From: Promethearchaeota archaeon | GTDB lineage: Archaea > Asgardarchaeota > Hermodarchaeia > Hermodarchaeales > Hermodarchaeaceae | DNA length: 64,000 bases | Direction: 5' to 3' | Assembly: GCA_048939245.1 (NCBI GenBank) | Contig: JBHLPR010000007.1 | Location: 74-64,073 of the forward strand | Notes under the pieces: generated by a model | The model's database searches: none | The model's input: only the letters and a program-made list of their open reading frames with translations | Told to the model about the DNA's origin: nothing | Shown here: positions 1-34,158 of the stretch, piece after piece | Layout: the number at the start of each line of letters is the position of its first letter | How positions within the stretch are numbered: position 1 is the stretch's first letter | Made by a program: the position numbers and the translations under genes

Positions 1-356
1 TGGAATTTAGTAAAATCATCTTCCCCCTCGAAACCTTGGAGAACCTCCGTGGTAAACTAGAAACTGTGAATTCCCTCCCTGAATCGATTGACATATTCAC
101 CACTATTCGCAATTTAGAGCAGCAATGGCTAGAAAAAATCAAAGAACTCGACGAATGGCACAAGGCCCTTCGCGTATTTCTTGCTGACTTTAATCCCGCT
201 GCGCCGAAAGCTGAACGTAATCGTCAACTCAACGAAATTGAAAAACGAATTCGAGAAACCTATACTCGAGACGATACAGCAAGCTATCTAAATTGGGCTG
301 CTCGCGAACTGGCAGCCGCCATGATCGAACAAAAAGCAAAAGCCAAGAAGAAATAA
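1..356 (+). CDS. C-terminal part of a helical/coiled-coil protein (5' end outside the window); first visible gene of the tubulin-like operon
   Basis: The reading frame is open from nt 3 to the TAA at 354-356, so the TTG at 36 in the ORF track is probably internal. Charged heptad-like sequence (LEQQWLEKIKELDEWHKAL, NEIEKRIRETY) with a Lys-rich tail. The stop is 12 nt before the next ATG. No family recognised. Confidence 0.5.
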   Translation, partial: EFSKIIFPLETLENLRGKLETVNSLPESIDIFTTIRNLEQQWLEKIKELDEWHKALRVFLADFNPAAPKAERNRQLNEIEKRIRETYTRDDTASYLNWAARELAAAMIEQKAKAKKK

Positions 357-368
357 GGTTGAATCAAC

Positions 369-1718
369 ATGGAAACAACAGAAGAAGGACCGCGAGTCGC
401 GGAAGTATTTGCCATCGGAATTGGAGAATGCGGAAGCAACCTCGTTGGTGCTTACCTCAAACAAGCACGAGAAAGCATGCTACCGCCACGAATCCGCGGA
501 TATCTATGTATGAATACTGATCGCTCCGATATCACAAAGCTTCGCCAAAAATATGATATCCCAAAGGAAAATACCCTCCTTTATGGCGCCTCAGACATTG
601 GGTGTGGAGGTAACTTTAGTGATGGCTACGATTATGTCCACAATTTCAAAGATGTCATAATGGGTCAACTAACCCAATTAGGCTTTGAAGGCGTTTCAGG
701 ATTTGTCATCTTCACCTCATCAGGAGGTGGAACCGGCTGTGGAGGCGCGCCCGCATTAATTGAGATTCTAAAAGAGCGATTCCAAGAGGAGGAAGGGCGC
801 CGAATTTTCGTCTATGTATTCACCGTCCTCCCCTTCAAGGATCAAACTTCGGAAGCTCTTAACACAATGTGGTCACTATCAAAACTACTTCGTGGACAAT
901 TAGAAGATCGCGGCGCTGATCTCGTCTGTCTGCTTAGTAATCGGGCAATGCTTCGACGAATTCTTGCCTGGCGAGAAGGGGAAGTAGCTGATTTCTTGCA
1001 AAAACAATTACAGATTGATGTGGCCAAAGTCACCGATGTTGAAGGCATGGTTCCATCGACTGTTGATGGTGCTGACGATGTATCCAAAGCACAAGAATCC
1101 GCGTTCGTTGAGCTCGTAAATCCATTAGCTTTACGGTTTGTGGAGCACATGCTTAGCCCGGGAGTCGTTGAATCTGGTAAAGAGGTCTTCCCCACGACAG
1201 ATATAGCCGATTACGCTAGAAAACTTGATCCAATTGTCGTACCTTGTTTATATACTGATGTAAGTCTAATTCCCTCTGCAGGCAATATCCCTACACAACT
1301 GAAAACAATGGTAAAATATGCCGTCGAACATTGTAGTTTCGCGGAAATTGGATCGGAACCTGGCGCTTCTTCAACCTATTATACTTTCTCAGGAACCCGT
1401 GAATACGCCCGCGCTGAATATGATCCACATATTAAACAAGCACTCCGCCCATACACAGCAAAGGGTGCTGCAATAACCCCTTGTTTTGTCTCATACGAGG
1501 ATGAAAACCACCCATCAGATTTGCTTCTCCTGTTAGGATTACCTCAAATCCCCGAAATCGAAGACTTAGTTAATTCAGCAACTGAACTCGTTGACCTCCA
1601 TTCAGGTCCCTCTCCTCTTCGGAGAGGCTGGTTTAAGAAATCCAAGGGTGTCAGTGAAGAGGTTCTTCGTGCAGCTATCCGTGATGTCGCTGAACTCTTT
1701 AATCTCGAAATGAAGTAA
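369..1718 (+). CDS. Divergent tubulin/FtsZ/CetZ-superfamily GTPase (449 aa)
   Basis: The translation shows the superfamily loops in canonical order: T1 GIGECGSN (nt 417-440), NTD (513-521), T3-like GCGGNFSDG (600-626), T4 signature GGGTGCGGAP (723-752), LPFKDQTSEALN, T6-like SNRAML, T7-like TTDIAD (1194-1211). ATG start with a weak SD-like AAGGTTGA upstream. Confidence 0.8.
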   Translation: METTEEGPRVAEVFAIGIGECGSNLVGAYLKQARESMLPPRIRGYLCMNTDRSDITKLRQKYDIPKENTLLYGASDIGCGGNFSDGYDYVHNFKDVIMGQLTQLGFEGVSGFVIFTSSGGGTGCGGAPALIEILKERFQEEEGRRIFVYVFTVLPFKDQTSEALNTMWSLSKLLRGQLEDRGADLVCLLSNRAMLRRILAWREGEVADFLQKQLQIDVAKVTDVEGMVPSTVDGADDVSKAQESAFVELVNPLALRFVEHMLSPGVVESGKEVFPTTDIADYARKLDPIVVPCLYTDVSLIPSAGNIPTQLKTMVKYAVEHCSFAEIGSEPGASSTYYTFSGTREYARAEYDPHIKQALRPYTAKGAAITPCFVSYEDENHPSDLLLLLGLPQIPEIEDLVNSATELVDLHSGPSPLRRGWFKKSKGVSEEVLRAAIRDVAELFNLEMK

Positions 1719-1727
1719 GGTCCACGT

Positions 1728-2756
1728 TTGTGGAGAGGACAAATATTGATAACAGCAGAAGAATTGCTGGAACGCATCCTCATTCTTACTACAGTAAACT
1801 CCACTCTGATTCATGCACTCATTACTATTGAGGCAGAAGGAAGCCTTAATCCTACACAAATTAAGCAGCTTGCTCATGGTGTTGCAGCCGTCCGTGAGTC
1901 CGTTAAACAAGCTTTAGGTGATTCAAAGAACAATCATACAACCTCTGGCTCCTCGTTTGTAGATGACACCATTAGAGTCATTCTTACTCATCTTGAACGA
2001 ATTGAAACTGCTCTGGACTCGTATGCTGACTCACGAAAAGAAAAAATCTCCAAAGTGGAACTTAAAGAACCCATCCTCGCTACTCAACAATTGATTGCAG
2101 AAGCTAGTGAGGACCTCGCCGGTCTAACAGGAAAACCCTTTCAACGGCGCCTTTCAGTTTATGACCCTGATAAGCTCCTCCCCCCAATTCAGCAACTACT
2201 GGATAAATATTCGAGTCGAAGCCATATTCTTCTACCCAATTATTGGTTTGAAGCTTGTCGAGAATTATTCCGTTATAGCGAACCACGTGAGGTAATCAAA
2301 GAAATCACCCAGATTGCCAGTCAGGTCTTTTACACCCTTATTCGCCGGTTCCTTGCTGAAGCACCCTGTGCCGGGCTTCTTCAGGAAATTGCTCGAAAAG
2401 GTACGATGGGAACTGATCTCACCAGTCGTGAGCGAAACAAAATCGTTGGAACCTGTAGCGAGTTTTATGATCGATTTAATAATGCTCTAAAAGCTAATTC
2501 AGTTAAAGACACACTCGCTGAAGCCAAACGGAACCTCCGCTCTTTCGATTGGGGACCAGCTGATGCGGAGAAACGAGTAGTGGGTGTGATTCATCGCAGT
2601 GCTCGAGAACTCCTGGACAAAGCATCTGATAGTAAAACGCTTTCCGACATGGAACGTATTACCAACGCCTTATTATGTCACTATATTTGTGCGCTAGCGG
2701 CTGATCTCTATGGTTTACCTCGTCTCAGCCAATTATTAACAGATATGAAAGTCTAA
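1728..2756 (+). CDS. Hypothetical all-helical protein (342 aa), third gene of the tubulin-like operon
   Basis: Long ORF starting at TTG 1728, 9 nt after the upstream stop. The first in-frame ATG is about 225 codons in, so a non-ATG coupled start is required. Helix-rich sequence with no recognisable motif. Confidence 0.6.
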   Translation: MWRGQILITAEELLERILILTTVNSTLIHALITIEAEGSLNPTQIKQLAHGVAAVRESVKQALGDSKNNHTTSGSSFVDDTIRVILTHLERIETALDSYADSRKEKISKVELKEPILATQQLIAEASEDLAGLTGKPFQRRLSVYDPDKLLPPIQQLLDKYSSRSHILLPNYWFEACRELFRYSEPREVIKEITQIASQVFYTLIRRFLAEAPCAGLLQEIARKGTMGTDLTSRERNKIVGTCSEFYDRFNNALKANSVKDTLAEAKRNLRSFDWGPADAEKRVVGVIHRSARELLDKASDSKTLSDMERITNALLCHYICALAADLYGLPRLSQLLTDMKV

Positions 2757-3355
2757 GCGGGATAGAGGCGTTTCTTAAGTTTGGCATTCCCAGTCTCTAC
2801 ATCGTAATCAATCAACTCAGCCCGGGAGAGGTCTCCTAAGGCTTTTCTGATTGCAGTCGGTTCGTGTCCGGCAGTTTTGGTTATTTCATCGCGACTCATT
2901 ACCTGCTTTCTTCCATGCAAAATGAACAACGTCTTTGCGTGGGGTTGAGCATAAAACACATCTTCAAGTAACGCAATATACAAGGCTAAAAGTTCCTGTA
3001 CAGGAATTGTGGCTTCCTGCTCGGAAACCAGCTCTTTATAGGTGTCTGACATTTTTTCCAATTGGGTCTTAATGGCGTTCAGCTCCGATTCCAAAGCACG
3101 GTTCTTGACCATCAAGTCGGTTGTCTGCTCAGCCGATTCTTTCAATTCATTTATTGTTCTCTCCAACCGTTCGATAGTAGCTGTTTTATTTTGTAGCTCA
3201 TTGGCTAATTCTTCAATACGGGCTTCAGCGGTTGCGTTCAATTCCTGTTGTTCCAAAAGTTCGTTGTTCATATCTTTGACAATTTTGTTTATTCTTTTCA
3301 CTGCTTTTGACACTTCACCTGGATAATCCTTGTCGGTTGATTTTTTGGTTGCCAA
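2753..3355 (-). CDS. Coiled-coil protein with C-terminal winged-helix (MarR/TrmB-like) DNA-binding domain
   Basis: The N-terminal ~115 residues are heptad-rich (ELLEQQELNATAEARIEELANELQNKTATIERLERTINELKE). The C-terminal ~80 residues (nt ~2756-2998) read like a wHTH (MSRDEITKTAGHEPTAIRKALGDLSRAELIDYD). TTG start. The stop overlaps the stop of the convergent gene by 4 nt. Confidence 0.6.
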   Translation of the reverse strand: MATKKSTDKDYPGEVSKAVKRINKIVKDMNNELLEQQELNATAEARIEELANELQNKTATIERLERTINELKESAEQTTDLMVKNRALESELNAIKTQLEKMSDTYKELVSEQEATIPVQELLALYIALLEDVFYAQPHAKTLFILHGRKQVMSRDEITKTAGHEPTAIRKALGDLSRAELIDYDVETGNAKLKKRLYPA

Positions 3356-3399
3356 TTAATTCACCTTTCAATATCAATGTACAAAGTGTAGGTTAACCT

Positions 3400-4455
3400 C
3401 TATTTATCACTAGGCTCTTTCTCTTCTTCTGGTCTTTTCGCGATACGATTACTAATCCGATTTAATTGAGGAGGCGCGGGTGGAGCCACTATTGATTCTT
3501 TTTTGAAATTAAAAACGGTAATCATCTCATCTTCAAGCTGAACTTTGACTTTCTGACTCCTATCCACTTTTCCAATCTTGGTTGCTTTGAGTCCCTGTTC
3601 TTCAAAAATCGCAATAACTGCGTCTACATTTTTGGGAATGGTAGATACGATAAAACCAGTCGAGATGTACATTTTCAGCCAGGTGCTAAGATCAAGATCA
3701 GTTGGAATAGAAATAGCGGATAAATCGATGGTTGCTCCTTTTTGCGCGTATTCTAGCATCAATAGTGTCGTACCGATGATGCCACCATTACTCAAATCCT
3801 TTGATGCAGAAAGAAGACGTTTATCAGCCAGGATTCGCATCGCTTCATATCGGGCGAGGATCTCCTTTGAGGATTTAAAGGTCGTTGTATCCCATCCAAA
3901 TTCATAATTCGGAGAAATACGTCCTTTCAGGTCAATAGCTAGAATCAGTGCATCGCCCGGTTGAGCTCCTCCTGCACTAATGTAAGACTCCCGCGGAACC
4001 GTTCCACACATTGAAGCACTGACACTGTTAATAGGAGCATGCGGAGTCGTATGTCCACGAACCACCTCAACTCGGAATTTCCGTCCCGCTTCACAAATAC
4101 CCTCCATGAACTTCACACCTGCTTTCATTTTGGTAAAAGCGATGTTAACCATTGCCACAATTGGCCGTCCACCAGCAGCATAAATATCGTTAACGTTAAC
4201 AAGAATTGCCGCATACCCCGCTACATAGGGCTTGTTCTCTGCTAACTCGGGAATAACCGCATCGGTAGAAAGCAAAATGAGCTTGTCACCACCAAGGTCA
4301 ATAGCCGCTGAATCCTCTCCGATGGATGATAACACATGAGGACATTTGAAGCCTTCTTTTTGGAGTATAGTCACCAATTGGCCAATTGGTTGCTTTCGAC
4401 GTAAACCCCAGTAATCCTTGACCCCTGAGACAATAGTGGACAATTTTTTTGGCAT
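3400..4455 (-). CDS. AIR-synthase-related (PurM/ThiL/SelD-like, COG2144-type) protein
   Basis: PurM-superfamily N-domain motif GEDSAAIDLGGDKLILLSTDAV and the C-domain pattern. ATG start. Pro-rich charged C-terminal tail. Confidence 0.7.
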   Translation of the reverse strand: MPKKLSTIVSGVKDYWGLRRKQPIGQLVTILQKEGFKCPHVLSSIGEDSAAIDLGGDKLILLSTDAVIPELAENKPYVAGYAAILVNVNDIYAAGGRPIVAMVNIAFTKMKAGVKFMEGICEAGRKFRVEVVRGHTTPHAPINSVSASMCGTVPRESYISAGGAQPGDALILAIDLKGRISPNYEFGWDTTTFKSSKEILARYEAMRILADKRLLSASKDLSNGGIIGTTLLMLEYAQKGATIDLSAISIPTDLDLSTWLKMYISTGFIVSTIPKNVDAVIAIFEEQGLKATKIGKVDRSQKVKVQLEDEMITVFNFKKESIVAPPAPPQLNRISNRIAKRPEEEKEPSDK

Positions 4456-4576
4456 ATGAATGCAGGCTCCATTGAGAGAATCGAGGTTGTTGGATTCGAT
4501 AAAACTTGTGGTTCATAAATAGTAAGACAAAATCGACTCACGTTTTGGTAGACGGAGACGAAGGGCAAATGTAGAC

Positions 4577-4584
4577 TATATAAA
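4577..4584 (+). promoter_or_regulatory. TATA-box-like element upstream of the LLM oxidoreductase gene
   Basis: TATATAAA lies 46-53 nt upstream of ATG 4630 in a divergent intergenic region. Position only, no experimental support. Confidence 0.3.
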
Positions 4585-4629
4585 CAGCTTCGACTAATCC
4601 CGCTTAGCTTTCTTCATCAGCTAGCAAAA

Positions 4630-5583
4630 ATGGTGGGCAAAATGGATTTTGGTGTACAAATTGAGCCTCAATTCGGATTTACATTCGATCAGGTTAAGAC
4701 TATTACAGAAGTGGCTTTGAAAAATGGGTTTGGTACCATCTGGTTTTCGGATCATTTTCTACTAGATAAGGATGCCACGAATCGGGTGCTCCTCGATCCA
4801 TGGTTGTTGATGGCGGCTCTTACTCAGCAAAACTCACAAGTGCGGGTCGGAAGCATGGTTTTTTGTCAAAGTTACAGAAATCCTGCCTTAGCCGCAAAGA
4901 TGGCCGCTTCATTGGATGTCCTCTCAAACGGACGGTTGGAGTTTGGGATTGGTGCAGGGTGGAAGGAAATCGAATACAAAGCCTATGGGTACCCCTTTCC
5001 CTCTGCGAAAATGCGTATTCGTCAAATGAATGAGGCCATCCAAATTATTCGTGGCATTTGGAATAACGAACGCTTCACCTTCAAAGGCGAATACTACCAG
5101 GTCGATGATGTGATTGCTTTCCCCAAACCCGTTCAGAACCCAATGCCGATTTGGGTGGGTGCTCAAAATGGAAAAGAGCTCATGCTTCGTGCCTCTGCGA
5201 AGTATGGGGATGGTATCAATATCGCATGGATGAGTACCCCTTCTGAGTTAGAACGCAAGTTTTCACGACTAGCTGAATTATGCACGAAATATGGACGGGA
5301 CCCTTCAGAAATCAAAAAATCTTTGGGATTGTGGACACGGATTTTCAGCACAGAAGAAGAAATGAATTTGGCAATCAAAGAAAATGCAAAAACGCGGAAT
5401 ATCCCAACAACTCAGTATCGAGAGAGAGTCAGCAAAGCTCTATGGGGCACTCCAGAATTAATGGTAAATCGTCTACGCCAATTTCAAAAAATAGGCGTTG
5501 ATCATTTCATTTTCATGTTTCCCCACACGCAGGAAGTCGACCAAATAAAGTCCTTAGGAACGTCCGTAATCTCCAAATTATAA
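4630..5583 (+). CDS. Luciferase-like monooxygenase (LLM) class flavin/F420-dependent oxidoreductase
   Basis: Typical LLM TIM-barrel sequence (GFGTIWFSDHF, LDVLSNGRLEFGIGAGW, PIWVGAQ). Confidence 0.8.
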   Translation: MVGKMDFGVQIEPQFGFTFDQVKTITEVALKNGFGTIWFSDHFLLDKDATNRVLLDPWLLMAALTQQNSQVRVGSMVFCQSYRNPALAAKMAASLDVLSNGRLEFGIGAGWKEIEYKAYGYPFPSAKMRIRQMNEAIQIIRGIWNNERFTFKGEYYQVDDVIAFPKPVQNPMPIWVGAQNGKELMLRASAKYGDGINIAWMSTPSELERKFSRLAELCTKYGRDPSEIKKSLGLWTRIFSTEEEMNLAIKENAKTRNIPTTQYRERVSKALWGTPELMVNRLRQFQKIGVDHFIFMFPHTQEVDQIKSLGTSVISKL

Positions 5584-5797
5584 CTACTGACTGAAATCTA
5601 ACTGGCTCATGCAAAGAGGTTGCATGTATAGTCGGCATCGGTTTGCCGCTCATTTTCACACAATAATACATAGCATCACACCTCTATCCTGCAGCAACCG
5701 GTAACTTCTAATGAATAATTTTGCACATGCCTGTCACTTAAAACAAGCAATGGCAATGCTGAACCCTCTCCGCGTAGTGCATTATTCCTGATAGCCA

Positions 5798-6541
5798 ATG
5801 GTGTCAAGATTGGGGTCCAAATCCATCGTCGTTAATTGTGACAACATCTTCAAGACCTATGAAGACGGAGACATTAAAGTCGAAGTTCTCAAGGGTCTTG
5901 ATTTTTCTGTAGAAACAGGTGAATTTGTCGCTATTGTAGGAACAAGTGGAAGTGGAAAGACCACTCTGGTTAATCTTATAGCCCTTTTAGACTCCCCTAC
6001 TGCCGGCGAAATTAGCATCGAAGGACAATCAGTAAATGGTTTGGACGATACAACCCTTTCCCAACTCCGCCGTGATAAAATCGGTATTGTCTTTCAAGGT
6101 TTTTATCTACTAGACATCATGAACGCTCGCGAAAATGTAGAAGTCCCAATGGTGTTTGCAGACATACCGAAAAAAGTGCGAATTGCCCGTGCCCTCGAGC
6201 TTCTCGATTTAGTAGGCATGCGCGATTTCGCAGAACAATATCCAACGGAGATGTCAGGTGGGCAGATGCAACGAATCGTATTCGCACGAGCGATTGCCAA
6301 TGACCCAGTTCTCCTTCTAGCCGACGAACCAACAGGTAACTTGGACACTGCAACTGGATTTGAAATCATTCGACTATTCAAAGAACTAGCTCACAATCGT
6401 CAAAAAGCCGTAGTAGTTGCTACACATGATCCAGAAGTTGCCAGTTCGGCTGATCGAATTCTAGTACTTCGACATGGAAGGCTCCACACTGATACATCAA
6501 TGTACGGACGAGATAGTGATTCAGAGGAGGAGCAATCGTGA
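5798..6541 (+). CDS. ABC transporter ATP-binding protein (MacB/LolD-like), module 1
   Basis: Walker A GTSGSGKTT, Q-loop, signature MSGGQMQR, Walker B LLLADEPTGNLD, H-loop ATHD. Confidence 0.9.
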   Translation: MVSRLGSKSIVVNCDNIFKTYEDGDIKVEVLKGLDFSVETGEFVAIVGTSGSGKTTLVNLIALLDSPTAGEISIEGQSVNGLDDTTLSQLRRDKIGIVFQGFYLLDIMNARENVEVPMVFADIPKKVRIARALELLDLVGMRDFAEQYPTEMSGGQMQRIVFARAIANDPVLLLADEPTGNLDTATGFEIIRLFKELAHNRQKAVVVATHDPEVASSADRILVLRHGRLHTDTSMYGRDSDSEEEQS

Positions 6542-9447
6542 GCTCAAAGTCAACTCCACCTACGATTGCCCCAAACGCTCATGGAAGCCATTGGTATGTA
6601 GCAAGTTATGTTGGAACTAGCGTTCGAAAACACAAAACCCGGTTCTTCAGTTTACTTATCGGAATAATGATTGGAATCGCTTTAGTCGCCTCTGTTTTTG
6701 TGTGGACTGACACTGACCGACGGGTAGCCACCATTGACTATTTTGACGCAAATCTTTACCAATACGGCATTCATCAGGTCTACGAATCTCCTATTGATAC
6801 CCAACTAATCTTTGATGTGGAAAATTGGTTTACGTCCCAACCGGAATATCTGGATTCAGATATCATCTACCATTCAGTAGGCTTCCTCAATGAAACCAAT
6901 TGGAATTCTTCAACTACTTATCTCCCACACCCATATTCTCGAGGAATCAAGGATTTCCAAACCTTTTTTGTTGATAATTCCTTTCTACGACAGGTAGCAA
7001 CCCAGTTCGATTTTGATGGAGTATTTGAATTATCTCCTGGCCAATGTTTAGTGAGTCAACGCGTGGTCGACGACGCTGAACTTATTCTAAATCAGACTAT
7101 CACCATTGGCAATTCCATCAATATCTCAATAGCATCTATGTATCGAGAACCTGTAACCCTTGGCGATCTGTACCCAATTAATAGCACAAATCTACTGGTT
7201 GTCGGTATTTACAATATCACCTATAGTGATACTGTACTTTACACAACGGAAGGAGGAACGTATCGGGCAAACTATCCCGGATCGATTAACGAACAGATTT
7301 TTGGCTGGAATGATGGCATCATTATGCATTACAACCAATTGACTTCAAATCAGCGAGATACACTAACAGCCAATTCTTTATTTCCCAAACTTCTCATCCA
7401 GCTAAATCCTATAGAAGTAGCCGCTGCTGGCTTAGATAGTGTGCCGCAGGTTATTCGGGAAATAAACTTACGATTACAGTTTCAGTTTCCACGAAGAATC
7501 ACAGTAGAAGGAGAACACCAAATTTTTCTTCTTGAACAATATATTGCAGCCAGCCAATCCCGCCAAACAATTGCTGTCTTATCTCTCCCCATCATCCTGC
7601 TTTCAATATTGTTGACTATCTTTGCTACTACAATTTTTCTTAGTGGACGCCGCTCTGAGGTCGCGATTCTTCGCGCGAGGGGGGCTAGTTTTCGCCAACT
7701 CTACGCCGCTTTCACCTTTGAATTCATGCTGATTGGCACAATTGCGCTTTGTTTGGGGGTAGGTCTTAGTCTCATACTTGGTTCTCTAATCCCCGCTTCA
7801 ATAGGCTTCCTACAATTTGATCCTGTCATTTTCTATCGATTTCTAATCCATGTACGGCTTGATCCCCTCATATGGGTAATTTCTCTACTAACTTGTCTAA
7901 TCCCTCCCTTGATTTTCACAATGATAAATGTGCGGACATTTCTACGCACCGAAATTTATGAAGCCATGGTGGGCACAACTCCGGTTGTAGATTCAGATTT
8001 CAGTATCACAATTGTCTATGCTATAGCCACTTTTGCATTACTCGGGTTTCTCCTCGTGGTTGTTCTTTTCATTCCCGTTACTTCCTCCATCGCAATACTT
8101 CTCTTCATCTATGCTGTAATAGTATGGACGCTGTTCAGTGATATTGGATCTCGCATCGTTCGTCAAATTATTGCCGGAATAACCCGTAGCTTTCAACCAC
8201 TTTTTGGAGAGAAGACTTTCATCTTTGAAAAAAGTATGAGAACGCGCCGCCAGCGAATTGTTCCTCTCCTCCTAATACTCACTTTAACCTTCTCAATTAC
8301 CATCTTTGCAGTGGTTGAGGCGCACACTGTTCAGGATAATGTTTACACCCAAGTGAGCTATTTCATGGGTGCAGACTTACGAATCGAAACCGGTTTTATC
8401 CATCACAATCATACCACTGACATCTTATCCATTCCAAATATAGAGTCAGCTACCGCCATTATCTACACGACAGGAACAATTGGCCCTGTTTCCATTACAA
8501 TTTATGGTATCGATGTCGAATCTTATGCAACAACTGGAAATTGGGATCCTTCTAGTACGGTTGGGGAAGTACCATCAATAGTGCTTAACAGACTTCAGAA
8601 TAGTTCAAACGGAATCATCCTTCCTTGGACCGTAGCAGAACAACTCAACAAGGTTGTTGGAAATAATCTTGTCCTCACGCTCCACCAACAAGGCGCTGGG
8701 GTATTGGGGGATGCCTCATTTCGTATTGTAGGTTTGGGACGCAGTGCTCCAGGATTAGGCTATTTTGATCCGAATGATCCAACTCGACCCACCGATTCAA
8801 CAAATGGCTTTCAATTTCAAGCTCCACAAATTTTTGCCTTAATTAACAGTCAATATCTGATAACTCGGAATATGACCAATACACGACTAATGCTAGCCCG
8901 TTTTTCCGAAAATGCATATGTCGAAGAGGTTCAACACCAAGTTTCCAGCCTTAATTTCACTTCAGCTGTCTACTCTCCAATGACCTTCTCTTTAGAGGAC
9001 ACCTACCCTGAAGCCTATCTTTTCAACCGGGGCGTGGTAAGCCTGCTCTCAATTGGCTTCTTCGCATGTGTTATTATCAGCATTATTGCACTGGTTCTCT
9101 TCGTGGGAATCATCGTCACCGAACGTCAAACAGAATATGCTATTATGCGTGCCGTGGGAAGCACCCAACGCCAAATCAGTGCGATAGTCGTAGGCGAATT
9201 CGTGGGTCTAATCCTCACTTCCTTCCTTGTAGCTTTACTGCTTGGATTCTTTTTCTCATGGCTCTTAATGCTCATCCTGCTTGGCTTGTTCCCTTTCCCA
9301 TATGTCATACCCTTCCATCTAAGTGTTCCTCTACTCATGTTACTTGCGGTCCTTGGAGTAGTGCTTATTGGAATAAGTATTGGAACCTATATCCCCGCCC
9401 GCCGGGCTGGGCAAACTAATGTTGGAAAAGTGCTGCGGAATTTATGA
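6538..9447 (+). CDS. Large FtsX/MacB-type ABC permease with two FtsX domains and two extracytoplasmic domains (969 aa), module 1
   Basis: GTG start overlaps the ATPase stop (GTGA). N-terminal TM, then a ~330-aa loop, a TM bundle, a second ~230-aa loop and a C-terminal FtsX-type TM bundle ending in PARRAGQTNVGKVLRNL. Confidence 0.85.
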   Translation: MSSKSTPPTIAPNAHGSHWYVASYVGTSVRKHKTRFFSLLIGIMIGIALVASVFVWTDTDRRVATIDYFDANLYQYGIHQVYESPIDTQLIFDVENWFTSQPEYLDSDIIYHSVGFLNETNWNSSTTYLPHPYSRGIKDFQTFFVDNSFLRQVATQFDFDGVFELSPGQCLVSQRVVDDAELILNQTITIGNSINISIASMYREPVTLGDLYPINSTNLLVVGIYNITYSDTVLYTTEGGTYRANYPGSINEQIFGWNDGIIMHYNQLTSNQRDTLTANSLFPKLLIQLNPIEVAAAGLDSVPQVIREINLRLQFQFPRRITVEGEHQIFLLEQYIAASQSRQTIAVLSLPIILLSILLTIFATTIFLSGRRSEVAILRARGASFRQLYAAFTFEFMLIGTIALCLGVGLSLILGSLIPASIGFLQFDPVIFYRFLIHVRLDPLIWVISLLTCLIPPLIFTMINVRTFLRTEIYEAMVGTTPVVDSDFSITIVYAIATFALLGFLLVVVLFIPVTSSIAILLFIYAVIVWTLFSDIGSRIVRQIIAGITRSFQPLFGEKTFIFEKSMRTRRQRIVPLLLILTLTFSITIFAVVEAHTVQDNVYTQVSYFMGADLRIETGFIHHNHTTDILSIPNIESATAIIYTTGTIGPVSITIYGIDVESYATTGNWDPSSTVGEVPSIVLNRLQNSSNGIILPWTVAEQLNKVVGNNLVLTLHQQGAGVLGDASFRIVGLGRSAPGLGYFDPNDPTRPTDSTNGFQFQAPQIFALINSQYLITRNMTNTRLMLARFSENAYVEEVQHQVSSLNFTSAVYSPMTFSLEDTYPEAYLFNRGVVSLLSIGFFACVIISIIALVLFVGIIVTERQTEYAIMRAVGSTQRQISAIVVGEFVGLILTSFLVALLLGFFFSWLLMLILLGLFPFPYVIPFHLSVPLLMLLAVLGVVLIGISIGTYIPARRAGQTNVGKVLRNL

Positions 9448-9466
9448 TCAAAGAAGTGAAGAAAAA

Positions 9467-10483
9467 ATGACAGTACGCAATAACCTCGTCAGCGGTTTAA
9501 TCAAAGAAGAAGAATTTGCCGATGTCCCCGAAAATCTAGTCTTAATGGCAAATGATGTCTACAAAATCTATCAGACTGGTGAGATTGAAACCGTTGCTCT
9601 GCGTGGCGTGTCCTTCCAAATCTTCCAAGGTGAAATTGTGGCTGTTGTAGGACCCTCAGGAAGTGGAAAGACTACTCTGGTAAATCTTTTGGGCGGAAGC
9701 CTTCGACCTAGTGCTGGTCAAGTGTATTGGTCAAATATTAAACAAGACATAGCAAAACTGGATGAACGAATCATAACCAATGCTCGTCGAGGGTTTATTG
9801 GCTTCGTTTTCCAAGTTGACAATTTACTACCTCACTTAACAGCCAAACAAAACGTAGAATTAAGTGCCCGAATCGCAGGACTGTCAAAGACTTGGCGACG
9901 AGAGCGGGCAATCGGGCTTCTGGAAGCTGTTGGGCTCAAGCATCGCATGAATCATATTCCTGCCAAATTATCCGGGGGCGAACGTCAACGAGTGGCAATC
10001 GCTGGTGCGCTCATGAATAATCCTGCACTTGTTCTTGCTGATGAACCTACTGGCGATCTCGATCTTATCAACGCAGAAGAAATTCTTGACCTCTTCAAAG
10101 ACCTCAATGAACAATATGGAACCGCATTCCTCATAGTTACACACAGCCAATTAATCGCCTCCAAAGCTCGACGAACCCTAGAACTCCGCGATGGAATTAT
10201 CAGTGGGACACATGATGCAGGAGTTCACCTCAGACAACTTGAAAGAACCCGTGTGTTAGAAGTTGATAACCAAGATAGATTACCTCTCCCTAAGAATATT
10301 CTAAGGGACCTAGGGCTTCCCCGACGATTCCAAGTTGAGGTTGAAGAGGGACGAATTATCCTTACCCCCTCAACGGTTGAAGATGCGGTTGCTGTGAAAG
10401 TGCAATTAGTCACCTGCCGAATTTGTGGAAAACTCGTTAAATCCAATCGGGTAACATGTCCAGAATGCGGAACTGCGCTTTGA
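9467..10483 (+). CDS. ABC transporter ATP-binding protein with C-terminal AbrB/SpoVT-like domain and zinc ribbon, module 2
   Basis: Walker A GPSGSGKTT, signature LSGGERQR, Walker B LVLADEPTGDLD. Tail has RLPLPKNILRDLGLPRRFQVEVEEGRIILTP (nt ~10250-10366) and CRICG-x12-CPECG (10412-10465). ATG 9467 is preferred over the track start 9380, which overlaps the upstream permease. Confidence 0.85.
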   Translation: MTVRNNLVSGLIKEEEFADVPENLVLMANDVYKIYQTGEIETVALRGVSFQIFQGEIVAVVGPSGSGKTTLVNLLGGSLRPSAGQVYWSNIKQDIAKLDERIITNARRGFIGFVFQVDNLLPHLTAKQNVELSARIAGLSKTWRRERAIGLLEAVGLKHRMNHIPAKLSGGERQRVAIAGALMNNPALVLADEPTGDLDLINAEEILDLFKDLNEQYGTAFLIVTHSQLIASKARRTLELRDGIISGTHDAGVHLRQLERTRVLEVDNQDRLPLPKNILRDLGLPRRFQVEVEEGRIILTPSTVEDAVAVKVQLVTCRICGKLVKSNRVTCPECGTAL

Positions 10484-10515
10484 GAGTATGAAAACAGGAA
10501 GGAGCAAAGACACCT

Positions 10516-13500
10516 TTGGTTCATAAATCGGAAAAAAATGTCCAATCTCCGAGCACGGAGAAATCCACCTTCAATGCTTCCCAAAGGAAACCAAGGGATA
10601 GTAGTCTTAGTAGGCGGCTATATGTTACTAAGTATGTACTCAACGGGATCCGCCATCATAAACGCCGTTCCATCAGTTTACTCATTGGCATCATGATTGG
10701 AGTTGCCTTAATCAGTTCTGTCTTCGTATGGACTGAAACAGGTGCTCGTGTTGCGGTGGACGATTATTTCGCCAGCATCTCTTTCCACTACTATTGTGTT
10801 CAAAACCAAAGTCCAACCACAGATGATCCTCAAGCCATTTTTTCGGTGAAAGAATTTGTTGATACCCACGCAACGACACGAGCATCTCATGTTGTCTTTA
10901 GTTCAATTGCTCTAATTGATTCTACTTTTCTTAATCCCACTGATTACTATTTACCCTATGCCTACGCACGGGGAATCAAAGATTGTCAAGTCTTTTTTGT
11001 GGATAATGATTTCCTTGCCCGTGCTGAACGGTCTTTTCGGATTATTGATGGGCAATTCCGTCTATCTCTGGGAAGCGTTCTTGTGAGCCAACATGTGGTT
11101 GAAGACTTGGAAGAAGTAATAGGGCGGCAGGTTTCTGTGGGAAGTATAATTGATTTGTCTGTTGCTCAAAGATACCAGAACACAAGAACTATTGGAGCAC
11201 TTAATATAACTAATCTTGTTGGGTTACGCATTGGTGGCATTTACCAAGTTATTACCCACCTAGAACCCCTTCTTGAATCCTTTCCCACACAAAGTCGACG
11301 TAATTGGGATCCAATTCAGGATTCGGAAACAGTCTTCGGATGGTATGATAGTGTTATTGTCTCAAAGAACGTATTTGACAGTGACATCTATGATCAAATT
11401 GCTGTACATGTAATGTTTCCCCGCTTACTTGTTGAAATCATCCCTGCTAGCTTCTATTCTACTCGGTTGGAAGAGCTTCTCGTTGGGTTTGACGCATTGT
11501 TAACGGATATTCAGATGAATAATGATGTAACCGTTGGAGGACGGAATCAACTTCTCTTCTTGCAAGAATACATCGAAGTCTATTATGAAAGACAGACCAT
11601 GGTTTTCTTAGTTCTACCGATGGTGATTTTATCTGTTCTTCTCACAACCTTCACCGCTTCACTTTTCCTTTCGAATCGACGAACGGAACTGGGAATCCTA
11701 CGATCTCGTGGAACAAGCTATCAGCAACTCTATTCCATACTTATGATTGAATTCCTCGTTTTAGCTACAATCGGCACAGTTTTAGGAGGACTTCTTGGAA
11801 TTCTACTCGGTTGTTTGATTCCTTCGGCTTTTTCATTCCTAGCCTTCAACCCAGTGAGTATCTTCAGGCATCTTAGCTTAACATCAATTAATCTCACGGC
11901 CTGGGTTATAGCTGGAGTGGCCTGTATAGTACCCGCTACAATCTATATCTTCCAAAAGACCCGCTCCTTCCTACGGTCTGAAATATATGCCGAGCTTCGT
12001 GAAACCAATTCCAAGTGGAAAAGCAGTTCGAAATTCCAAGTTGCTTATGCATTTATTATAATACTGATTTCAATCCCTTTGACTTACGTTGTCCTGTCTA
12101 TTCCCATCACAACAGACATCGCTCTTATTTTCTTCATTTTTGTAATAGGATTTTGGATACTTCTTGCTGACGCTATTGCCCGTCTAATTCGACCCGGAAT
12201 AGCCACGTTTTCCAGATTATTCACTCCCGCAATTGGTCAAAAAAGCCAACTCTTTGTGAAGTCTTTAAGAGTGAAGCGAACTCGGGTTGTCCCCTTACTA
12301 ATGATTTTGCTCCTCACTTTCTCTATCACAATCTTTTCGGCTGTTGAAGCGCAGACCTATCAAATTCATCTCGATCAACAGATTAACTACTATGTTGGTG
12401 CAGATATCCATGTATATTCGGATCGTGTTTTTGCTAGCCGGATAAATGAAATTACTGCTCTCCCACAAATCGACACGGCGACAGCCTTTATTGAGGTTCA
12501 AGCTGAGATTGGAGAATCCGATTTAAAACTCATGGGTGTGAACCCATCAGCATATGCGGAGGTTGGGAACTGGGATGAGTCGAGTATGGTAGATGACGAT
12601 TATCGTGCGGTTTTCGCCCGACTAGCAGCTAATCGCAATGGAATCATCCTGCCTGCACATATCGCTACGCTCTACAATCGACGAGTTGGAGATACCATCC
12701 CTGTTCAAGTACGTGACCAACGGTCGTTAGTAGTCGACTACAAACTTTTTGATATTGTGGGAATTATGAACAAAGCTCCGGGGTTAGGCTATTCCAATCC
12801 CTCTGATCCCCAATTGGTGCCTACACCAAATCCTGGTTTTGGATTTCAAAAAAGTAATGCCTTCGCTTTGTGTCACCAGCATTACTTTCTGGTAGAAATT
12901 CCCTCATTCGATCCATACGCTGTTACTGATTCGACTCGATTATTTCTAGCAAAATTGAATCCTTCTCAAGACGTTCAAGCAGCTCAGGATGCTCTAGAAG
13001 ATCTTGAATTTATTTTTCAAACTTGGTCTCCCTATACTTTTGACTTAGAAGAAGCCTACTATGATGGTTACTTATTTTCGCAGGGAGTTATTGGGCTTCT
13101 CTCCGTGGGTTTTCTTGCCTCACTGGCTATTAGCGTGGTCGCTTTAACGGTTTTTGTCAGCATTATTGTATCCGAAAGAAAAACCGAGTATGCCATATTA
13201 CGTGCCTTGGGTGGGTCCCGACGCGATGTTACTTCAATGGTCTTTGTGGAGTTTGTTAGTCTTATTTTATTAGCATTTTTCTTCAGTGTAGTAGTTGGAG
13301 TTTCCTTCTCGTGGCTGCTGATGTTTGTAATTATCAAACTCTTTCCTCAGCCTTTTATCGTTCCGTTCACGATTATCTATCCCCTCAATCTTCTAATCGT
13401 GGTCTTAGGGTTTGTCGTTCTTGGATTATTGACAGGTGCTTACCTCCCTGCTCGTCGTGCTGGGCAAGTTCAGGTCAGTAGTTTGCTCCGTAATCTCTAG
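10516..13500 (+). CDS. Large FtsX/MacB-type ABC permease (994 aa), module 2, paralog of 6538-9447
   Basis: Same architecture and shared blocks with module 1 (SLLIGIMIGVAL, ARGIKD-QVFFVDN, APGLGY, PARRAGQVQVSSLLRNL). TTG start. Confidence 0.85.
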   Translation: MVHKSEKNVQSPSTEKSTFNASQRKPRDSSLSRRLYVTKYVLNGIRHHKRRSISLLIGIMIGVALISSVFVWTETGARVAVDDYFASISFHYYCVQNQSPTTDDPQAIFSVKEFVDTHATTRASHVVFSSIALIDSTFLNPTDYYLPYAYARGIKDCQVFFVDNDFLARAERSFRIIDGQFRLSLGSVLVSQHVVEDLEEVIGRQVSVGSIIDLSVAQRYQNTRTIGALNITNLVGLRIGGIYQVITHLEPLLESFPTQSRRNWDPIQDSETVFGWYDSVIVSKNVFDSDIYDQIAVHVMFPRLLVEIIPASFYSTRLEELLVGFDALLTDIQMNNDVTVGGRNQLLFLQEYIEVYYERQTMVFLVLPMVILSVLLTTFTASLFLSNRRTELGILRSRGTSYQQLYSILMIEFLVLATIGTVLGGLLGILLGCLIPSAFSFLAFNPVSIFRHLSLTSINLTAWVIAGVACIVPATIYIFQKTRSFLRSEIYAELRETNSKWKSSSKFQVAYAFIIILISIPLTYVVLSIPITTDIALIFFIFVIGFWILLADAIARLIRPGIATFSRLFTPAIGQKSQLFVKSLRVKRTRVVPLLMILLLTFSITIFSAVEAQTYQIHLDQQINYYVGADIHVYSDRVFASRINEITALPQIDTATAFIEVQAEIGESDLKLMGVNPSAYAEVGNWDESSMVDDDYRAVFARLAANRNGIILPAHIATLYNRRVGDTIPVQVRDQRSLVVDYKLFDIVGIMNKAPGLGYSNPSDPQLVPTPNPGFGFQKSNAFALCHQHYFLVEIPSFDPYAVTDSTRLFLAKLNPSQDVQAAQDALEDLEFIFQTWSPYTFDLEEAYYDGYLFSQGVIGLLSVGFLASLAISVVALTVFVSIIVSERKTEYAILRALGGSRRDVTSMVFVEFVSLILLAFFFSVVVGVSFSWLLMFVIIKLFPQPFIVPFTIIYPLNLLIVVLGFVVLGLLTGAYLPARRAGQVQVSSLLRNL

Positions 13501-21164: not shown

Positions 21165-21240
21165 TGGCGGGCCCGCAGGGATTTGAACCCCGGATCTACA
21201 GGTCCGAAGCCTGTCGCCGTATCCACTTGGCCACGGGCCC
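21165..21240 (-). tRNA. tRNA-Arg (anticodon UCG), 76 nt with encoded CCA
   Basis: The reverse complement folds by hand into a cloverleaf. Acceptor GGGCCCG/CGGGCCC, D arm GCC-AAGTGGATA-GGC, anticodon stem ACAGG/CCTGT with loop CTTCGGA (TCG at 34-36), T arm CGGGG-TTCAAAT-CCCTG, discriminator G, CCA. Confidence 0.9.
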
Positions 21241-21272
21241 ATAATAGAGACAGGCGAGTTACGATTCGCCCT

Positions 21273-21280
21273 ATTTTAAC
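21273..21280 (-). promoter_or_regulatory. TATA-like element upstream of tRNA-Arg
   Basis: TTAAAATA on the minus strand, 33-40 nt upstream of the tRNA 5' end, within the 134-nt region shared with argS. Confidence 0.3.
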
Positions 21281-21374
21281 CGTTTCGTTTCGCTTTTTGA
21301 TGTTTCTAACCAAATCGGAAGGCGACGAAAGAGAAAAAAGGCTGACTCTGTGTACTCTCAACAGGAAAAGGACA

Positions 21375-23246
21375 ATGGTGAACATTGAAAACCCTTGGGC
21401 AGAATTCAAAAACCAGGTCACCGAAGCTCTTCGCTTATCGAGTGGTCAAGATCTTAGTCAATTCTTGGAAGTACCTGCAGACGCCCACCATGGTGATTTA
21501 GCTTGCACCGCTGCATTTCATCTCGCTCAAAAACTGAAAAAAAGTCCTTCAGAAATCGCCAAAGAACTTGCAATATTTGATCCTAGTCGGTTCCCTATGA
21601 TTGAACAAGTTGTTGCACACGGTCCGTATGTTAATTTTTACATCAACATTATTCCATATCGGCGTTTGGTTTTCGACGCTATCGCAAAGAATTCGGGTTC
21701 TTATGGGAACTCTACGCTATTCACTGGAAAACATGTAGTCGTTGAATACCCCGCTGTAAATCCAAACAATCCCCTACATATCGGCCATGCTCGAAACGCA
21801 GTCTTAGGGGATACTACCGCTCGAATCTTGGAGGCTGTCGGTTATGATGTCACACGAATGGACTACATCAATGACTTGGGATTACAAATTGCTGTAGCCT
21901 ATTGGGCACTAAAAAATCTAGATGCTAAACAATACAAAGGCAAATACGACCAGATTATCGGTCGCCTTTATGTAGAAGCCCAAGAAAAGTACGATGAATC
22001 GGAAGTACGACGATTCCTGAAGCTCATGGAACAAGGCAATAACAAAACTGCTACTGAAGTCCGAAAAATGTCAGAACGCGTTCTCCGCGCACACCATAAA
22101 ACCCATAATCAGCTAAATGTCCACCATGACCTCCTAGTCTGGGAAAGTAATATTGCTCATTCAGGGCTTTTTGCGGAAGCCCTAGAAAAAATCCTTGAGG
22201 CCCCCATGATATCACAACCCCAAACAGGTGAGAAGGCAGGTTGTGTCATCGTAGATCTGAGCGCCTATGAAGAATTCCAACAATTAAAGGACACCGAGAA
22301 AGTATTAGTGCGCTCCGACGGCGTCGCAACATATACAGGAAAAGATATCGCTTTTCATTTCTGGAAATTTGGTATCATTGAAGATCCTTTCAAGTACAAG
22401 CCCTTTCAAAGTCCAAAGAGCAAGGAAGATTCCTTGTGGACAACCACGCAACGGGGAGAACCTGGTCATTATCAACCTGCAGACATAATTTACAATGTCA
22501 TCGGAATGGCTCAAAGTCAAGCACAACGCACCGTCTATCTGACTCTGAAGACTCTAGGTTATGAAAACGCTTCTAACAACTACTATCATCTCGCATACGA
22601 ATTCGTAAACCTTCCAGAAGCTCGATTCTCGGGACGAAAAGGAACGTGGATTGGATTTAGTACTGACGCAGTAATCCGTGAAGCTACACGACGTGCAAGG
22701 AAAGAAGTGAAAAAACGCAATCCATCTGCTGACAGGAAATTCCTCCGGGAGGTAGCTGAAGCCATCGGATCCGCGGCAGTTAGATATTCTTTGATCAAAG
22801 TCGCTGTGGAAAAACAGATTGTCTTCAAATGGGAGGATATGCTCAACTTTGATGGAAACGCAGCACCTTATTTGATGTACACCCATGCACGCGCAAGCTC
22901 CATTCTTCGTAAAGAAGAAGCCCCACGAAAGGCGCGAATTAGTGTATTAACGCGCCCCTTTGAAACCGAACTCATAAAGCTTCTCGGTCGCTTTCCCGCA
23001 ATTGTCCTCGAAATCATTCAAGGTATAAAACGTGAAGTCTGGGGAACACGCATCGAACTCTTCCATCTTGCAGAATATGCTTTTGAGCTCTGCGTCTCTT
23101 TCAACTCATTTTACAATCATTGCCCAGTCCTCAAAGCGGAAACAGCTGCCCTCAAAAAAGCACGACTTGTACTTGTCGCACATTGCAGACTAGTACTATC
23201 CAATGTACTCGATCTTTTGGGAATCCGCCCGTTAGAACGCATTTAG
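21375..23246 (+). CDS. argS: Arginyl-tRNA synthetase
   Basis: Class I signatures: HIGH-like PLHIGHARN, an Arg-tRNA-synthetase N-domain and a DALR-type anticodon-binding C-terminus ending in ...LLGIRPLERI. ATG 21375. The track extension back to 21183 runs antisense through the tRNA. Confidence 0.9.
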   Translation: MVNIENPWAEFKNQVTEALRLSSGQDLSQFLEVPADAHHGDLACTAAFHLAQKLKKSPSEIAKELAIFDPSRFPMIEQVVAHGPYVNFYINIIPYRRLVFDAIAKNSGSYGNSTLFTGKHVVVEYPAVNPNNPLHIGHARNAVLGDTTARILEAVGYDVTRMDYINDLGLQIAVAYWALKNLDAKQYKGKYDQIIGRLYVEAQEKYDESEVRRFLKLMEQGNNKTATEVRKMSERVLRAHHKTHNQLNVHHDLLVWESNIAHSGLFAEALEKILEAPMISQPQTGEKAGCVIVDLSAYEEFQQLKDTEKVLVRSDGVATYTGKDIAFHFWKFGIIEDPFKYKPFQSPKSKEDSLWTTTQRGEPGHYQPADIIYNVIGMAQSQAQRTVYLTLKTLGYENASNNYYHLAYEFVNLPEARFSGRKGTWIGFSTDAVIREATRRARKEVKKRNPSADRKFLREVAEAIGSAAVRYSLIKVAVEKQIVFKWEDMLNFDGNAAPYLMYTHARASSILRKEEAPRKARISVLTRPFETELIKLLGRFPAIVLEIIQGIKREVWGTRIELFHLAEYAFELCVSFNSFYNHCPVLKAETAALKKARLVLVAHCRLVLSNVLDLLGIRPLERI

Positions 23247-31808: not shown

Positions 31809-32071
31809 CCTATGTCACCAAACGTTACCCAATGAAATTCTACTCTTCACTCTTTATTTGCAGATAAATTCTATTAGACAGGCTCTACAAACGCTTTAGC
31901 GCTTCTAAACCTTTCGGTGTCTAAATGCACCATTTGATTTCCATTACTGCCTTATTCGTTGGTGAATTGGCGAATTTAGTTTTTTTTCTCAAGATGAGCA
32001 AAGCATAAAAGACTTAACGCTCTCCATCGAAGCGAATTTCACACATACAATATCTCGGGGTGTACATTTTC

Positions 32072-32641
32072 ATGACGGAACGAATCATTGACCTTCGTTT
32101 TCATGGCCGAGGAGGCCAAGGTGCCTGGACCGCTTCAATCCTCCTAGCTCGAGCTGCAATCTTTGAAGGTAAACACGCGCAATCTTTCCCCTTTTTCGGA
32201 CCCGAAAGAAGCGGAGCACCAGTAGAAGCCTTTGCACGCATCAGTACCAAAGAAATCGAACTTCATAGTAAAGTGTATGAGCCAGACTATGTCGTGGTCA
32301 TCGATCCTTCGCTTCTCGACCAAGTACCAGACACCATTATCGCGGGAACCAACAAAAAAACGAAACTCATTGTTAATACCCGTGAAGACGGAGGCACTAT
32401 ATCTAAAAAACTAGGATTCAAAGGAGAAGTCTGGACAATAGCAGCCACGGATTTAGCCCGAGAAATCCTTGGGCGCCCAATCGCAAACACCGCCATGTTA
32501 GGCGCATTAATTCGAGCGACTAATTTAGTGAAGCTTGACAGCTTATTTACCGAGGTCACCAATCAATTTGGCGACCGAATCGGAGAGAGAAACGCCACCA
32601 TTATTAAACGCGCCCATGATGAGGTGAAGAAACATGCCTAA
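32072..32641 (+). CDS. porG: 2-oxoacid:ferredoxin oxidoreductase gamma subunit (POR/VOR type)
   Basis: FHGRGGQGAWTAS motif. First gene of a gamma-delta-alpha-beta operon. Substrate (pyruvate or another 2-oxoacid) is not determinable. Confidence 0.85.
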   Translation: MTERIIDLRFHGRGGQGAWTASILLARAAIFEGKHAQSFPFFGPERSGAPVEAFARISTKEIELHSKVYEPDYVVVIDPSLLDQVPDTIIAGTNKKTKLIVNTREDGGTISKKLGFKGEVWTIAATDLAREILGRPIANTAMLGALIRATNLVKLDSLFTEVTNQFGDRIGERNATIIKRAHDEVKKHA

Positions 32642-32909: not shown

Positions 32910-32915
32910 ACCCAA

Positions 32916-34142: not shown

Positions 34143-34158
34143 CCTGGAGGAAAAGAAC

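Follow-up and report, generated by a model that had tools for sequence, protein, structure and literature searches.

A conserved, Asgard-specific three-gene module around an Asg.Tub GTPase of the tubulin superfamily, a candidate chromosomal filament system

The left end of a 64,000-nucleotide (nt) stretch of DNA from a Promethearchaeota archaeon (contig JBHLPR010000007.1; the whole stretch is referred to here as the window) carries three genes on the same strand, namely a truncated gene (gene 1), a gene for a tubulin-superfamily GTPase, and a third gene (gene 3). Comparison of sequences across archaeal genomes indicates that this trio is a real, conserved and Asgard-specific tubulin-superfamily module, and we consider it probable (about 60%), from sequence and predicted structure, that it encodes a filament system powered by GTP, located on the chromosome and equipped with two accessory proteins of its own, that acts outside FtsZ-based division. 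The original prediction, made from the letters of the window, had claimed three co-oriented open reading frames (ORFs), which are indeed present at 3-356, 369-1718 and about 1.73-2.76 kb, and had regarded them as an undescribed system. The latter holds for part of the trio: the family of the GTPase has been named before, as Asg.Tub, and is uncharacterised, whereas the partner families and the trio itself are undescribed as far as the literature that we searched goes. The features on which the analysis rests, all on the forward strand, are the following.

3-356, forward: last 117 codons of gene 1 with its stop codon TAA (354-356), cut by the left edge of the window; from translation and ortholog alignment.
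357-368, forward: spacer of 12 nt that separates gene 1 from the GTPase gene, GGTTGAATCAAC, with a weak Shine-Dalgarno (SD)-like GGTTGA; relatives have GGTGA or AGGATGA there.
369-1718, forward: gene of the Asg.Tub tubulin-superfamily GTPase, 449 amino acids (aa); from Pfam, AlphaFold2 (AF2), Foldseek, hhalign and homologs.
417-440, forward: T1 loop GIGECGSN, residues 17-24; G19, E20, G22 and N24 invariant, C21 at least 90% conserved.
723-752, forward: T4 signature GGGTGCGGAP, residues 119-128; G119, G120, G121, G123, G125, G126 and P128 invariant.
975-1076, forward: H6-H7 insertion, residues about 203-236; family-specific, poorly conserved, low model confidence.
1191-1211, forward: T7 loop PTTDIAD, residues 275-281, with the acidic pair D278 and D281; aligns to the T7 loop of CetZ.
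1732-1738, forward: SD-like GGAGAGG, 7 nt upstream of the start of gene 3; relatives have GGGGAGG, GGAGAG or GGGGGAG.
1746-2756, forward: gene 3, 336 aa, all-helical; start by comparison, fold from AF2.

The product of 369-1718 is, to judge from its predicted structure, a complete two-domain protein of the tubulin/CetZ type, whose parts are a GTPase domain, helix H7, the T7 loop, an activation domain on the C-terminal side and, at the C-terminus, three helices. Residues 12-195 match Pfam family PF00091 with 66.3 bits (cutoff 33), and across a family alignment of 72 homologs, on which conservation was scored, the key positions of loops T1, T3, T4, T5, T6 and T7 are invariant or at least 90% conserved. 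All the motifs quoted in the original prediction are found in the order given there, that is GIGECGSN (residues 17-24), NTD (49-51), GCGGNFSDG (78-86), GGGTGCGGAP (119-128), LPFKDQTSEALN (154-165), SNRAML (190-195) and TTDIAD (276-281), and the Pfam score together with the conservation among homologs shows that they are not there by chance. The T4 loop lines up with the CetZ sequence GGGTGSGG, and the tubulin signature GGGTGCGG is invariant in it, with Cys replacing Ser/Thr. Other invariant residues of the GTPase are N49, T50, G78, G80, G81 and N191. In T7, P275, D278 and D281 are invariant and T276 and T277 at least 90% conserved, and the two aspartates match the acidic pair of the CetZ T7 loop ("vvDa.dI", or D..D/E) in the hhalign alignment. 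An invariant W-F-x-x-x-K-G motif is found close to the C-terminus (W421, F422, K426 and G427, with S425 at least 90% conserved). The Cys residues which had been pointed out in each of three phosphate-binding loops are not equivalent in this respect, since C21 and C124 are at least 90% conserved, whereas C79 is specific to the clade, Val being present at this position in the family consensus.

An AF2 model built on the 72 homologs (mean pLDDT 83.3, pTM 0.86) predicts a Rossmann-like GTPase domain with strands S1-S6 and their helices, a long core helix H7 (237-265), the T7 loop, helix H8 (279-285), and an activation domain with a four-stranded sheet and two helices that is followed by three helices (395-443); the C-terminus is predicted as folded helices, with pLDDT 82-94. 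When this model was searched with Foldseek against the Protein Data Bank (PDB), 1052 matches were obtained at E<=1e-3, and the top 50 all belonged to the tubulin branch or to CetZ. They included OdinTubulin (E 3e-20, TM 0.63-0.66), CetZ2 and CetZ1 (TMt 0.79, root-mean-square deviation (RMSD) 4.3-4.4 A), BtubA/B, gamma-tubulin and AtubA/B, with E values of 1e-18 to 3e-20 overall and sequence identities of 13-18% in the alignments. Both the profile and the structure searches, which had been proposed as checks of the fold, thus speak for the tubulin/FtsZ fold. The insertion between H6 and H7 had been estimated at about 45 residues and is in fact shorter, about 25-35 residues: CetZ shows a gap of about 24 residues opposite positions 219-242 or so in the hhalign alignment, the family consensus is undefined across the insertion, and model confidence drops in it (pLDDT about 47-55 in 10-residue blocks over 201-240, and below 50 at 203-205 and 220-235).

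Among the families compared, the GTPase is by sequence nearest to CetZ, which has been described mainly from Euryarchaeota (PMC9856176). The closest PDB sequence match to the single sequence was CetZ 4b46 (5e-9), and a profile of the 72 sequences matched 4b46 at 1.8e-11, 3zid at 6.5e-8 and 4b45 at 3e-7, while tubulins of all kinds appeared at about 3e-5 and covered no more than part of the GTPase domain. Alignment by hhalign with a CetZ profile made from 29 bona fide CetZs covered residues 13-413 of the GTPase and 3-365 of CetZ (probability 99.8%, E=1.6e-29, 340 columns, 23% identity), and because this match spans both domains, the C-terminal domain can be taken as homologous to that of CetZ. 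These values also weaken the mosaic character with features of eukaryotic tubulin that had been suggested for the motif set. Haloferax volcanii CetZ1 and CetZ2 (PDB 4b46/4b45) and the Methanosaeta protein (3zid) are therefore the nearest characterised relatives by sequence and profile, and they share with the window GTPase the two-domain fold, an extra C-terminal helix, an LP-type T5 loop and the acidic T7 loop.

In view of this proximity, it could be proposed that the GTPase is a plain Asgard ortholog of CetZ, involved in morphogenesis linked to cell shape or motility as in Haloferax, and that its neighbours are incidental. Besides the profile match over both domains and the good superposition on CetZ (TMt 0.79, RMSD about 4.3 A), the database entry of the Heimdall LC_3 homolog (P0108, 50% identity) is already named 'Tubulin-like protein CetZ', and Santana-Molina, del Saz-Navarro and Devos (2023, Front Microbiol, PMC9871819) concluded that Asg.Tub is 'more closely related to CetZ than to eukaryotic tubulins'. 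We nevertheless find this explanation unlikely. The CetZ_C domain (PF21011) gave no match to the GTPase even at E<=1, whereas two true CetZs (P0202 and P0204) score 167 and 184 bits, and identity to CetZ is about 23%; on these grounds identity as a canonical CetZ was rejected. The T1 loop reads GECGSN in the window GTPase and GQAGG in CetZ, and the H6-H7 insertion, the extra C-terminal helices with the invariant W-F-x-x-x-K-G, the obligatory operon with two unique partners and the Asgard distribution are further differences. Moreover, the published trees place Asg.Tub outside CetZ, in an unstable position between CetZ and tubulin (PMC9871819). The family appears isolated as well when 1.84 billion cluster representatives are scanned exhaustively with HMMER: two full-length Asg.Tub representatives were found at 715 and 495 bits; apart from a distant orphan at 154 bits, everything else, CetZ included, scored 75 bits or less and matched the N-terminal domain only, and such a gap in score, from 495 bits down to 75 or less, speaks for a family of its own. 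Finally, CetZ genes are found in unrelated contexts, and the neighbours of the GTPase gene are strictly conserved (see below), so that they can hardly be incidental.

The distant orphan just mentioned (P0187, 457 aa, the only relative with an intermediate score) is encoded at positions 6001-8149 of locus L087 (Logan SRR7811641). It represents a separate orphan tubulin-like family and lacks gene 1; its downstream gene overlaps it and encodes 262 aa that open with a strongly hydrophobic segment, MMVIDMSFLLGVILFFSIVAAVSSFLVFY, and P0187 itself is encoded downstream of a pair of SMC and ScpA genes, at a distance of about 2.3 kb.

Other identities were considered and rejected. The FtsZ model TIGR00065 scored 25.7 bits, over the N-terminal 127 residues only and against a cutoff of 295.2, the Pfam scan gave no FtsZ_C match, the C-terminus is folded, and no FtsZ was found among the top 50 Foldseek matches in the PDB; unlike FtsZ, the GTPase has no flexible C-terminal tail, and there is no SepF gene in the module. 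The lack of a Tubulin_C (PF03953) match, the partial profile match at about 3e-5 and the 13-18% identity stand against a true tubulin. OdinTubulin (7evb), AtubA/B (9f6t) and BtubA/B are top Foldseek matches that superpose over the full length (TM 0.60-0.66), and the GTPase differs from these prokaryotic and Asgard tubulins in that low identity, in the missing Tubulin_C and in being encoded by a single gene rather than by an A/B pair. The view of a tubulin/FtsZ-superfamily GTPase with intact loops and T7, distinct from both canonical FtsZ and canonical CetZ, is thus borne out by profiles and structure.

Sequence comparison places the window GTPase in Asg.Tub, an Asgardarchaeota CetZ-like group that was defined from four sequences (PMC9871819). 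The four founders, Thor SMTZ1-83, Thor AB-25, Heimdall LC-3 and Heimdall B3-JM-08 (PMC9871819 supplement), carry in their printed sequences the same motifs as the window GTPase (GIGECGSN, GGGTGCGG and VTTDLADYARKL), and the Thor AB-25 contig corresponds to one of our loci (L055), whose protein is 62% identical to the window GTPase over residues 5-448. In that work, a hidden Markov model (HMM) for the Asg.Tub C-terminus matched nothing and the genome context was given as 'unknown genes', mostly coiled-coil (PMC9871819). The present analysis deals with the same family, but extends it from four sequences to at least 128 species genomes, and finds a C-terminal domain homologous to that of CetZ and a conserved trio. 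Asg.Tub may also correspond to the 'CetZ-related Asgard archaeal clade' that serves as outgroup in bioRxiv 10.64898/2026.02.15.705738.

Relatives of the GTPase are encoded in those at least 128 species genomes of GTDB, which belong to several Asgard classes, and 139 Asgard homologs were collected at 49-93% identity. The closest genomes are labelled Hermodarchaeota, with GTPases 93-97% identical to that of the window, whose background is about 44% GC. About 85 loci were taken from GTDB species genomes and public assemblies, and gene 1 and gene 3 were sought in them by HMMs. In every locus with enough flanking sequence the GTPase gene is flanked by gene 1, directly upstream, and gene 3, whose product has about 340 aa, directly downstream, on the same strand (a few loci are fragmented); the loci carry the labels Hermod, Thor, Borr, Sif, Hod and Heimdall, and the layout is kept even around the most divergent ortholog (P0184). 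Identity between classes is 52-64% for the GTPase, 22-30% for gene 1 and 28-34% for gene 3, and BLASTP between Hermod and Heimdall gives 3e-31 for gene 1 and 6e-16 for gene 3. The rate at which the partners diverge is therefore two- to threefold that of the GTPase, yet both are retained, while the genes outside the trio differ between clades. The neighbours were expected not to be conserved if the GTPase were nothing new, and the opposite was observed, since both partners are conserved across Asgard classes. At three loci on complete chromosomes of 2.6-3.2 Mb (CP070658, CP070761 and CP070760) the trio is chromosomal. Spacers within it are of 0-30 nt or the genes overlap, and several loci of Thor and Borr have a stop codon that overlaps, or directly adjoins, the start codon of the next gene. 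The original prediction had described the operon as translationally coupled, which must be taken as deduced: those Thor and Borr junctions would suit it, but in the window the spacers are of 12 nt, as had been claimed for the first one, and 27 nt, each with an SD-like sequence of its own.

Some genomes have two GTPase paralogs, with 54-57% identity. In Hodarchaeales the second paralog is still accompanied by gene 1 (E=1.4e-91), but no gene 3 lies within 6 kb, so that gene 1 and the GTPase appear to be the invariant core of the module; this paralog adjoins Arf/RagA-like GTPase genes. In the Hodarchaeales locus L088 (JGI 3300041085, 2566-9563), a 54%-identical paralog stands with a 1140-aa gene 1 homolog and no gene 3, and is followed by a convergent gene for a 732-aa protein with an Arf/RagA-like small-GTPase domain and by a gene for an Arf/RagA-like protein of 287 aa. 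The Heimdall locus L003 likewise has an Arf-like GTPase gene, upstream of the trio at a distance of 3.4 kb. One metagenome-assembled genome (ACFFDP_06600-06610 and ACFFDP_08755-08765; P0003/P0146/P0176 and P0143/P0181) has apparently two complete trios, with partners 79-84% identical, which means that either the whole module was duplicated recently or the bin mixes two strains.

With regard to the upstream partner, the fragment in the window aligns to residues 758-873 of one ortholog (P0161) and 783-899 of another (P0160). Orthologs are about 875-930 aa long in Hermod, Thor and Borr; those of Heimdall, Hod and the genome of P0184 have about 1020-1170 aa. The proteins are acidic and contain little Pro and Gly and much E, K, R, L and A. 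Conservation is highest in the C-terminal 75 residues or so, which are within the window, and includes (P0161 numbering) W799, W809, H810, I840, T843, Y852 and L853. A partial protein of 781 aa (P0172) is encoded on a 7-kb contig with the same locus-tag prefix, ACFFCF, as the window genome. The sum 781 + 1 + 117 gives 899 aa, equal to the length of P0160, a fit that suggests an assembly break inside gene 1; P0172 is thus probably the missing N-terminal part of the window gene 1, located on another contig, and the full protein would have about 899 aa and no Pfam domain. A scan for transmembrane and amphipathic segments gave no hydrophobic segment in gene 1, hhalign among seven slices of it gave no significant internal repeats (at most 26%), and searches of Pfam, NCBIfam, PADLOC and the PDB, with single sequences and cross-class profiles, gave no match beyond sub-threshold helical or coiled-coil noise.

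The presence of an obligatory large partner of helical composition, superficially like GCP, could also suggest that the GTPase does not polymerise and forms a stable complex with the products of gene 1 and gene 3, acting as a GTP switch or as a template similar to that of gamma-tubulin and GCP. The stoichiometry expected from a tight operon would suit a complex, and gamma-tubulin is among the better matches by sequence and structure. However, these matches are no better than those to alpha/beta-tubulin, Odin and Btub, and no Pfam match to GCP/Spc97-Spc98 (GRIP) was found at E<=1 in three gene 1 and two gene 3 orthologs, nor did PDB profile searches of gene 1 give anything. The T7 pair, moreover, is invariant, and this makes sense only at a longitudinal interface between subunits. 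We accordingly regard a non-polymerising complex as improbable.

As for gene 3, the original prediction held that it can only start at TTG 1728, after a 9-nt spacer. Its conserved N-terminus MITAEELL starts with ATG (L001), GTG (L012, L016) or TTG (L006, L010) in other loci, in close relatives a purine-rich SD always precedes this start, and the NCBI annotation gives 336 aa (P0121); the conserved N-terminus, the SD at 1732-1738 and this annotation place the start at TTG 1746, and the spacer after the GTPase gene is therefore of 27 nt. The all-helical character that had been claimed for the protein agrees with an AF2 model built from 36 closer homologs, in which residues 131-336 form a compact domain (pLDDT about 90) and the N-terminal 130 residues or so form long, low-confidence helices. 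The C-terminal domain bears the motifs YSxRSHLLLPxYWFEACRELxRY, EAPxARLLQ and FDWGPxDxEKRV. Foldseek gave no match to the model in the PDB (best E 0.85) or BFVD (best E 0.54), and Pfam, NCBIfam, PADLOC and PDB searches, cross-class profiles included, again yielded sub-threshold helical or coiled-coil noise and no match. Kinship between gene 3 and gene 1 was rejected (hhalign 0.35%). No clear membrane anchor emerged from the scan for transmembrane and amphipathic segments, in which the N-terminal helix of gene 3, ILILTTVNSTLIHALITI (KD19=1.57), was the one borderline case.

Gene 3 is met by a convergent ORF on the reverse strand (2753-3355, 200 aa) that overlaps its stop codon by 4 nt. The product has an N-terminal coiled coil, with weak matches to SMC, Rad50 and arcadin-4-like proteins, and a C-terminal region with a weak TFIIE_alpha or winged-helix-like signal. 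A homolog is convergent to gene 3 in 14 loci of the Hermod clade, and in loci of Thor, Borr, Hod or Heimdall the trio has no such neighbour; the linkage of this ORF in the Hermod clade only led us to reject it as a fourth member of the module.

A compact operon with a tubulin-like GTPase and small and large partners, next to which this winged-helix-like signal appears, is reminiscent of TubZRC and PhuZ, which are likewise small operons around a divergent tubulin-like GTPase, and would be compatible with the segregation or positioning of DNA through an adjacent adaptor. Segregation had been named in the original prediction, together with cytoskeletal and membrane-remodelling roles, as what the module might do, and we found no evidence for it. 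The module is chromosomal and spans several Asgard classes, with at least 128 species genomes, consistent with vertical inheritance, the conserved partners have no helix-turn-helix or other DNA-binding domain, and no iteron-like or centromere-like arrays were seen upstream of gene 1 at five loci, where only two-copy chance matches appeared. The ORF with the winged-helix-like signal is linked in the Hermod clade only, and no mobile-element genes flank the module. A TubZRC/PhuZ-like function is therefore very improbable.

The reading that we prefer is that of a GTP-driven filament system. The GTPase would bind GTP, join head-to-tail into protofilaments and hydrolyse GTP upon assembly, in the manner of CetZ, FtsZ and tubulins, and the acidic pair of T7 would complete the catalytic site in the following subunit of the protofilament. 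The products of gene 1 (about 100-130 kDa) and gene 3 (38 kDa) would be dedicated accessory subunits made from one transcript, the former an obligatory partner (scaffold, bundler or anchor) that would bind the polymer through its conserved C-terminal 110 residues or so, and the latter a modulator or adaptor that would be dispensable in the second paralogous copy. A precedent for a tubulin-type polymer gene that adjoins a gene for a helical accessory protein is found in BtubABC, although the trio partners are not TPR or kinesin-light-chain-like as compared with BtubC; FtsZ with SepF, FtsA, ZapA and EzrA, the last being large and all-helical, provides a general model of a superfamily polymer under helical accessory regulators. 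The module would build a cytoskeletal structure not involved in division, related to cell shape, protrusions or internal organisation. Heimdall LC-3, whose genome also has the module, encodes a canonical FtsZ (OLS21975.1, PMC9871819 supplement), and a role outside division is for this reason the most likely.

Several points weigh against this interpretation. We infer polymerisation of the GTPase from conserved residues and a predicted fold only, co-transcription of the trio from spacing only, and the all-alpha nature of gene 1 from its composition and weak matches to helical families. In addition, no membrane-targeting sequence, DNA-binding domain or other recognisable domain was found when the partners were searched for them, so that the roles given to these proteins are guesses. 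A bolder version, in which the trio would be an unrecognised, self-contained Asgard cytoskeletal machine whose GTPase, placed between CetZ and tubulin, co-polymerises with a giant helical partner and a partner of novel fold, is advanced only tentatively.

Elsewhere in the window, a GC-rich island at 32060-35142 on the forward strand, in which 500-nt windows have 47-57% GC (background about 44%) and the GC skew is strongly negative, holds the genes of a 2-oxoacid:ferredoxin oxidoreductase, namely of its gamma, alpha and beta subunits (POR; POR_N with PFOR_II; TPP_enzyme_C), and the composition of the island suggests a recent horizontal acquisition or a strong codon bias. The only tRNA of the window, tRNA-Arg(TCG) at 21165-21240 on the reverse strand, lies head-to-head with the arginyl-tRNA synthetase (ArgRS) gene (21183-23246, forward); the tRNA overlaps the longest ORF call of the latter, and the true ArgRS start must then be further downstream. 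The divergent locus L086 has an ArgRS gene as well, located upstream of the trio at a distance of about 1.2 kb. Two consecutive sets of MacB-type ABC transporter genes occupy 5798-13500 on the forward strand, the first with an ATPase (5798-6541) and a 969-aa FtsX-domain permease (6538-9447), and the second with an ATPase (9380-10483) and a 994-aa permease (10516-13500). The FtsX Pfam domain in these sets is a mark of the permease, not of a cell-division gene.

The GTPase family, which belongs to the poorly resolved region that separates CetZ from tubulin, is spread over six Asgard groups of different labels, Heimdall- and Hodarchaeia among them, and the published surveys, with four sequences and 'unknown coiled-coil genes', overlooked that it belongs to a conserved module. 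The trio offers a defined three-protein system for expression, imaging and reconstitution, in which two co-inherited partners match nothing known. If it is truly a filament system, it would represent an extra tubulin-superfamily cytoskeleton of Asgard archaea beside FtsZ and the Atub and Odin tubulins. Should it be a co-polymerising machine, it would provide the closest surviving picture of a pre-tubulin polymer with dedicated 'MAP-like' proteins, and would build a structure so far unseen in Asgard cells.

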